Source of the DNA: Escherichia coli
GTDB taxonomy: Bacteria; Pseudomonadota; Gammaproteobacteria; Enterobacterales; Enterobacteriaceae
DNA length: 64,000 nt
Direction: 5' to 3' (one strand)
NCBI RefSeq assembly: GCF_017348835.2
Contig: NZ_CP071375.1
This document shows, in pieces, positions 19,745 through 20,227 of the stretch (position 1 is the first letter of the stretch; each line of letters opens with the position of its first letter). The notes beneath the pieces were generated by a model that saw only the letters and a list, made by a program, of their open reading frames with translations, did no database searches and was not told the origin of the DNA. The translations under genes were made by a program, and so were the position numbers.

Positions 19745-20227
19745 TTACATTATTTCCCGTGGCCCTTCCAGAGATATACCTGTCGCACTACTTTTTTCAT
19801 TTTTCGCAACAAAGTTACCGCCATTAACAACAACATCGCCAGTTGAATCAATGACCATTGCAATCCGGACATAGGTGCCTTCACCTTGAGCTGTGATGGT
19901 GGAGCCTGTAGCTTTAATCACAACATTTTTGTCATCGCTAACTTTTACACCGTCAACGAAGTTTTGGTCTACCGTTGATTCGGCGGTAATATCATGACCG
20001 CCAAAAGTAACATTAAGGTCTTTATCTGCCGCATTAATTGTGACGGCTGTAATCTGTTGGTCTGCTGTATTGCTAATAACAACATCTTGATTCAGAGTCG
20101 TGTTATTTTTATCCAACGTAACCGACGTAGTTGATACCGCGTTATCAGCAGCGAATGCTGATGCAGAAAGAGCCATAACAATAGCTGTCGCTAATGCGCT
20201 GCGGTAAAATGCCTTACTGTTTTTCAT
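19745..20227 (-). CDS. Small secreted Ser/Thr/Asn/Val-rich protein with signal peptide (adhesin- or passenger-like repeats); function unknown
   Basis: ORF 19745..20260; start set at MKNSKAF... (GGAGAA upstream); signal peptide ending AFA-ADN. Confidence 0.55.
   Translation of the reverse strand: MKNSKAFYRSALATAIVMALSASAFAADNAVSTTSVTLDKNNTTLNQDVVISNTADQQITAVTINAADKDLNVTFGGHDITAESTVDQNFVDGVKVSDDKNVVIKATGSTITAQGEGTYVRIAMVIDSTGDVVVNGGNFVAKNEKSSATGISLEGPREIM

Follow-up and report, generated by a model that had tools for sequence, protein, structure and literature searches.

A truncated hyxB/upaB autotransporter adhesin gene at the edge of the hyx island of Escherichia coli

Organization of the hyx locus

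The locus lies in a 64,000-nucleotide stretch of E. coli DNA (hereafter the window, to which coordinates refer unless otherwise stated). We identified it as the ipbA(fimX/hbiF)-hyxR-hyxA-hyxB(upaB) island, located between betA and ykgH, by comparing window 19000-22900 with 5,426 complete E. coli genomes in a megablast search. hyxB is the NCBI name of upaB ("outer membrane autotransporter HyxB"; CFT073 c0426; PDB 6BEA). The GC content of the island is 0.30–0.49 across window 19200-23800, and that of the flanking genes is 0.45–0.61. The loci of EC100 (L002) and 13P460A (L008), each encoding a HyxB of 765 aa, served as intact references.

Four of the five genes of the hyx block are pseudogenes, and hyxR alone is intact. 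On the minus strand, the features of the block are as follows: 1) ipbA (=fimX/hbiF; 22306-22866), a tyrosine DNA invertase pseudogene, has a 1-bp deletion in codon 114 and a 2-bp deletion in codon 169. 2) hyxR (=autR; 21183-21977) encodes a LuxR/GerE-family regulator of 264 aa with a GerE domain (PF00196), and shows no indels and 4 mismatches. 3) hyxA (=autA; 20269-21029) has a 1-bp deletion in codon 79, at about window 20795, and is labelled "frameshifted" by PGAP in an identical record. 4) An ORF of 160 codons (19745-20227), the subject of this study, follows hyxR and hyxA as the last gene and adjoins ykgH at the edge of the low-GC island. 5) ykgH is cut by an element annotated as IS3-family (IS1203/IS629-like; 17765-19074, 1,310 bp), which is flanked by a 3-bp target duplication (placed on the intact locus, its two flanks share 3 bp); the 5' part of ykgH (19072-19605) is an ORF of 177 aa versus 222 aa in intact YkgH. 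An Rfam scan of window 17000-24000 returned nothing at the 160-codon ORF, its sole match being the ALIL frameshift pseudoknot at 18623-18739 within the IS.

Two other ORFs of the region are also gene fragments. The 177-aa "Wzz-like" ORF beside the 160-codon ORF is the cut 5' part of ykgH, the other piece of which lies at about 17624-17767, and a 127-aa ORF (22483-22866) is the N-terminal part of ipbA, lacking the C-terminal catalytic region. Two 32-nt inverted repeats (22004-22035 and 22275-22306), 81% complementary and 239 nt apart, lie in the interval from the start of hyxR to the remnant of ipbA; their proximal arm belongs to a 39-bp palindrome at 22001-22039. These repeats are probably the FimX/IpbA-invertible hyxR promoter switch of the literature. 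Since ipbA is frameshifted, the switch may be locked, unless another Fim-type recombinase acts in trans.

Both regulators bind the upaB promoter, AutA (=HyxA) activating and AutR (=HyxR) repressing the gene; AutA/HyxA is required for upaB induction (PMC4844996) and has been reported as a global regulator. The assignment of HyxA to the LuxR/GerE type was made by Phyre2 modelling (PMC4844996), and we detected no Pfam GerE domain in either intact or shortened HyxA.

Properties of the 160-codon ORF

The ORF at 19745-20227 is on the minus strand and consists of 160 codons plus TAA, with a GGAG ribosome-binding site about 10 nt 5' of the ATG. The N-terminus of its product has the features of a canonical Sec signal: an n-region (MKNSKAFYR) with 3 positive charges, a hydrophobic core at residues 10–22 (Kyte-Doolittle about 2.2), and a c-region (SAFA) followed by ADNAV, with AXA at -3/-1 (SAFA|AD), as judged by hydrophobicity and the AXA rule. 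Codons 1–26 (20150-20227, minus strand) are thus the signal peptide coding part, with predicted cleavage at SAFA|ADNAV, and the product carries the N-terminal Sec-dependent signal peptide expected of a classical type Va autotransporter. Cleavage after A26 agrees with the published UpaB signal of residues 1–37, since CFT073 numbering begins 11 codons upstream (776 versus 765 aa), and the chain of 6BEA begins at the predicted cleavage position.

Three repeat motifs start at residues 72, 102 and 132, with the regular 30-aa spacing of beta-strand repeats. The mature product contains V (13.4%), T (12.7%), D (9.7%), N (9.0%) and S (7.5%), and is also rich in A and G. The sequence-only reading, which gave the length as 160 aa but left the strand unstated, had likewise recognized a clear signal peptide and degenerate repeats; its description of the protein as Ser/Thr/Asn-rich is roughly right, V and D being abundant as well.

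Scans of the 160-aa product against Pfam and NCBIfam gave only sub-threshold noise (PIN_4, CE2_N and GH35); the N-terminal UpaB passenger lies outside any curated domain model. AlphaFold2 run on the single sequence yielded an unusable model (mean pLDDT 39, pTM 0.31), and a fold search with it was unnecessary because the product matches 6BEA at about 80% identity. No sigma-70-like promoter was found upstream of the ORF on the minus strand in a promoter scan, a result that is weak evidence either way. Two plus-strand ORFs overlapping the gene (19712-19846 and 19994-20134; 44–46 aa) were treated as chance ORFs.

Homology to UpaB and loss of functional domains

A sequence search against solved structures aligned residues 26–155 of the product with residues 3–132 of the 466 in the UpaB passenger structure 6BEA (E=7e-49); the aligned part covers about 28% of the passenger. 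The product is identical to intact HyxB of EC100 at 132/154 aa (86%) and to that of 13P460A at 140/154 aa (91%). Codons 1–154 are homologous to HyxB, and codons 155–160 (GPREIM) are out of frame. An identity of 86–91% to the N-terminus of intact HyxB/UpaB places the ORF far beyond a chance reading frame. The gene also occupies the position expected of an orthologue, following ipbA, hyxR and hyxA between betA and ykgH, an order described previously as well (PMC4844996). In a 100%-identical sequence from strain PE164 (pig), PGAP labels the gene as an "adhesin" pseudogene, frameshifted and incomplete, without C-terminus. The earlier suggestion that the protein was a fragment of a beta-helical adhesin or autotransporter passenger was therefore well founded, as it represents the N-terminal 154 residues of UpaB/HyxB; the question of whether it was a truncated autotransporter is answered by its full-length homologues, the 765-aa HyxB proteins, relative to which it is truncated.

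UpaB, in CFT073 numbering, comprises a signal (1–37), an alpha-domain (38–500) and a beta-domain (501–776) (PMC6488583). Its passenger is a 13-turn right-handed beta-helix, in which fibronectin binding depends on turns 3–8, the GAG groove is made up of turns 6–10 and the loops between turns 2–6, and an autochaperone-like cap lies at the C-terminus (PMC6488583). Judging from the 30-aa repeat spacing, the product would correspond to roughly the first four turns. Of the 463 passenger residues it retains about 128, among them 3 from the 10-residue fibronectin patch (S1) and 1 from the 7-residue GAG-groove set (G1). The DNA for the rest of the passenger (38–500 when complete, with all 13 turns) has been deleted, and the autochaperone-like region falls in the deleted segment. 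The translocator domain PF03797, found at residues 506–743 of intact HyxB (E=1.4e-47), has no match in the product, and its coding DNA is absent. In all, the protein has lost about 72% of its passenger as well as the autochaperone-like region and the entire beta-barrel.

The deletion, the frameshift and the post-hyxB hairpin

Compared with the intact loci, 1,858 bp are missing at the junction between window positions 19736 and 19737. On either side of this gap the intact loci align collinearly with window 19075-19736 and window 19737-24000, and the missing segment extends from hyxB codon 165 to the gene end, together with part of a hairpin that follows the stop codon. The loss can be resolved into two steps. 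Five other genomes (the TUM13936 type) have a primary junction at which 1,837 bp are deleted, with the left end 31 nt beyond the stop codon and the hairpin complete; comparison with this type (L009/L010) shows that the window type lacks a further 21 bp within the hairpin. The 21-bp loss thus came after the 1,837-bp deletion. The junction is blunt, its ends sharing at most 1 nt of microhomology. IS-mediated deletion was considered and rejected, since neither an IS sequence nor a long repeat is present at the junction in addition to the near absence of microhomology.

The second lesion is a 1-bp loss at codon 155 (19763-19765, minus strand), where alignment shows C3 on the plus strand (G3 in the coding strand) versus C4/G4 in intact alleles. 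This loss in the G4 run changes the frame from ...SLEGATGNNVTLN to ...SLEGPREIM followed by the stop codon. It is common to the window, PE164 and F2_81, and the other remnants that share the junction keep C4/G4. It is not a sequencing error, as the exact 160-aa product is encoded on 137 public contigs.

In intact loci the hairpin past the hyxB stop codon has a 12-bp stem, of which a single arm, GCCTGCAGGCAG (19721-19732), survives in the window. As there is no T-run after it, this hairpin may not be an intrinsic terminator. Its loop, located just past the hyxB stop codon (L002 3640-3700; L008 2625-2665), was found in two orientations between strains (...GCATAC... versus ...GCAGTATGC...), as if it had been flipped.

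Distribution and further decay of the truncated gene

About 1,840–1,890 of the 5,426 complete genomes (34–35%) have the island, in agreement with the published 34%, and 1,571 of the 5,426 keep 80% or more of the segment that the window lacks. The deletion is carried by 10 genomes (0.18%), five with the window-type junction and five with the primary junction. These carriers came from pigs, cattle, an otter, humans and fresh water in six countries. The exact 160-aa product occurs on the 137 contigs mentioned above from several sources, and this allele persists in a successful lineage. Products of 160–179 aa encoded in draft genomes make up a cluster with 118 members.

In all 10 carriers the frame is open almost to the junction, and the start codon, GGAG and signal peptide are kept. 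The length of the remnant ORF varies among them (160, 169, 170 or 176 aa), some of the tails being out of frame or encoded by intergenic sequence. Neighbouring genes have been hit as well, and every deletion lineage has followed its own course of further decay: carrier A16 has IS903B in ipbA, OkiPb01695 has ISEc8 in place of most of hyxA plus hyxR and ipbA, and the window has the frameshifts in hyxA and ipbA and the IS in ykgH. Nei-Gojobori dN/dS values were 0.25–1.25 for remnants versus 0.39–0.70 for intact alleles, two ranges with no clear difference between them, calculated from few substitutions in mosaic alleles. An in-frame 3-bp indel in three remnants is uninformative about selection on the frame, because it sits in a (GTT)3 microsatellite.

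Eight non-synonymous changes are clustered in codons 86–122 (window 19860-19975): V86, Q88, N89, V91, D92, D98, K105 and I122. The cluster was found at 99% identity or higher in 8 of the 5,426 genomes, all of them deletion carriers, and in no intact hyxB; the two other carriers, ETEC6335 and A16, have the prevalent sequence there. The cluster may have been brought in by recombination from an allele not sampled here, or have arisen by drift after inactivation followed by partial gene conversion.

Interpretation and alternative explanations

We conclude that the ORF is almost certainly a non-functional 5' remnant of hyxB/upaB, a classical type Va autotransporter adhesin gene. The features by which a pseudogene is recognized were all found: it is clearly homologous to part of a longer functional gene, it carries disabling lesions, and its occurrence is restricted to few lineages. 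The "unknown function" assigned by the sequence-only reading is not supported; the ORF is already annotated as a pseudogene, and its parent is a well-characterised adhesin gene. The placement of the ORF as the last gene at the island edge was accurate, and so was the pair of LuxR genes noted upstream of it, for HyxR/AutR and HyxA/AutA, of LuxR/GerE type, directly control upaB (PMC4844996). The further proposal that the ORF is a plausible regulated effector is right for the parent gene as far as regulation is concerned, but is not supported for the truncated ORF of the window. An effector regulated by HyxA and HyxR would depend on an intact activator, an intact repressor and a functional target; here hyxA is frameshifted, hyxR is intact and the target is cut. 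That reading had also stated that it would be refuted if the ORF turned out to be what is left of the 5' end of a larger gene, the rest being deleted, with no independent function. Such a 5' remnant is what lies at the locus, and the lack of an independent function is our inference.

The intact protein is directed by its Sec signal to the periplasm; its C-terminal beta-barrel inserts into the outer membrane and exports the 13-turn beta-helix passenger, a binder of fibronectin and glycosaminoglycans. In the lineage of the window, a non-homologous deletion took everything past codon 164 of hyxB, and the 21-bp deletion and the 1-bp frameshift came later. We infer that the remnant is unexpressed and has lost its function. 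Translation could nevertheless still occur, since the open frame, start codon, GGAG and signal peptide are kept. If transcribed and translated, the product would enter the Sec pathway and have its signal peptide cleaved, leaving a periplasmic fragment of 134 residues, roughly four beta-helix turns, with no route to the surface. Because it has no barrel, no autochaperone region and few binding residues, this fragment would most likely be degraded. Its stranding in the periplasm and subsequent degradation are probable by analogy with classical autotransporter biology, and the remnant presumably serves no useful purpose.

The alternatives, taken together, are very unlikely. The one that survives best, though we consider it decidedly improbable, is that the ORF encodes a small protein, periplasmic or secreted, that is functional, i.e. 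a neo-functionalised N-terminal UpaB fragment still under HyxR control, with a role such as that of a decoy, a trigger of envelope stress or an antigenic remnant. The intact start codon, ribosome-binding site, signal peptide and hyxR are compatible with such a protein, as are the openness of the ORF in 10/10 deletion carriers and the occurrence of the 160-aa form on 137 contigs. However, an open frame of about 480 nt is expected by chance at a divergence of a few percent, and the C-terminus is not conserved among carriers, its length varying (160/169/170/176 aa) with out-of-frame or intergenic tails. Export through the outer membrane is no longer available with the barrel deleted. Autotransporter passengers fold starting at the C-terminal autochaperone end, and this end is missing. 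Regulation argues in the same direction: the activator gene hyxA is frameshifted, and one carrier has an IS in place of the regulators. The allele is, moreover, confined to 0.18% of complete genomes. We regard it as similarly improbable that the remnant has been kept in the pig-/livestock-associated lineage for a function of its own, whether as a periplasmic or vesicle-borne fragment or as a modifier of ykgH expression.

Still less credible is an effect in cis, in which destruction of the hairpin allows read-through from the upaB promoter and so puts ykgH under HyxA/HyxR control. The 21-bp secondary deletion does remove one arm of the 12-bp-stem hairpin, and ykgH follows about 140 bp further downstream in the same orientation. 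But ykgH of the window is split by the IS and hyxA is frameshifted. The hairpin, which lacks a T-run, may not terminate transcription at all, no sigma-70-like promoter was found by the scan ahead of the remnant on the minus strand, and the five primary-junction genomes retain the hairpin. An error of assembly or sequencing that hides a full-length hyxB is equally hard to credit. The frameshift does lie in a homopolymer run, a typical error site, but ten independent complete genomes from varied sources in six countries share the junction, the exact 160-aa translation recurs on 137 contigs from several sources, and the flanking sequence is collinear and uninterrupted by contig ends.

With the ORF read as a pseudogene of hyxB/upaB, it can be struck off the list of candidate secreted effectors of unknown function. 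The whole hyx/UpaB module is decaying in this strain, with the adhesin cut, the activator and invertase frameshifted and ykgH split by an IS. The practical value of the finding lies in annotation and virulence-gene typing: PCR or k-mer screens directed at the 5' end of upaB would call such strains upaB-positive, though display of the adhesin is impossible.

Comparison with known systems

The remnant shares with intact UpaB/HyxB the locus (hyxA-ykgH), the start, the signal peptide and the first 128 or so passenger residues. It differs in i) its length (160 aa versus 765–776), ii) the absence of turns about 5–13, the extended GAG-groove strands and most of the fibronectin patch, and iii) the absence of the autochaperone-like cap and the entire beta-barrel.

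The island as a whole resembles the AutA/AutR UpaB cluster of APEC (GI-4, PMC4844996) in gene order, in the betA-ykgH insertion site, in low GC and in having two LuxR/GerE-type regulators upstream of the adhesin gene. In contrast to that cluster, the target in the window is a stump and both the activator and the invertase are frameshifted, so that only the repressor HyxR/AutR is intact.

The closest parallel in decay is the hyxB pseudogene of O157:H7 (e.g. strain Z1811), which is located in the same island and annotated as "adhesin ... missing C-terminus", with hyxR, ipbA and ykgH being pseudogenes there as well. Its lesion (L003 3713-4973) is, however, an internal deletion of about 1.04 kb, after which an N-terminal ORF of 364 aa and, annotated apart from it, a barrel fragment of 62 aa remain. 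The two lesions are independent, neither junction being common to the window, and the island has therefore been inactivated more than once. The locus described here is thus another case, separate from that of O157:H7, of independent and recurrent upaB inactivation in E. coli lineages.
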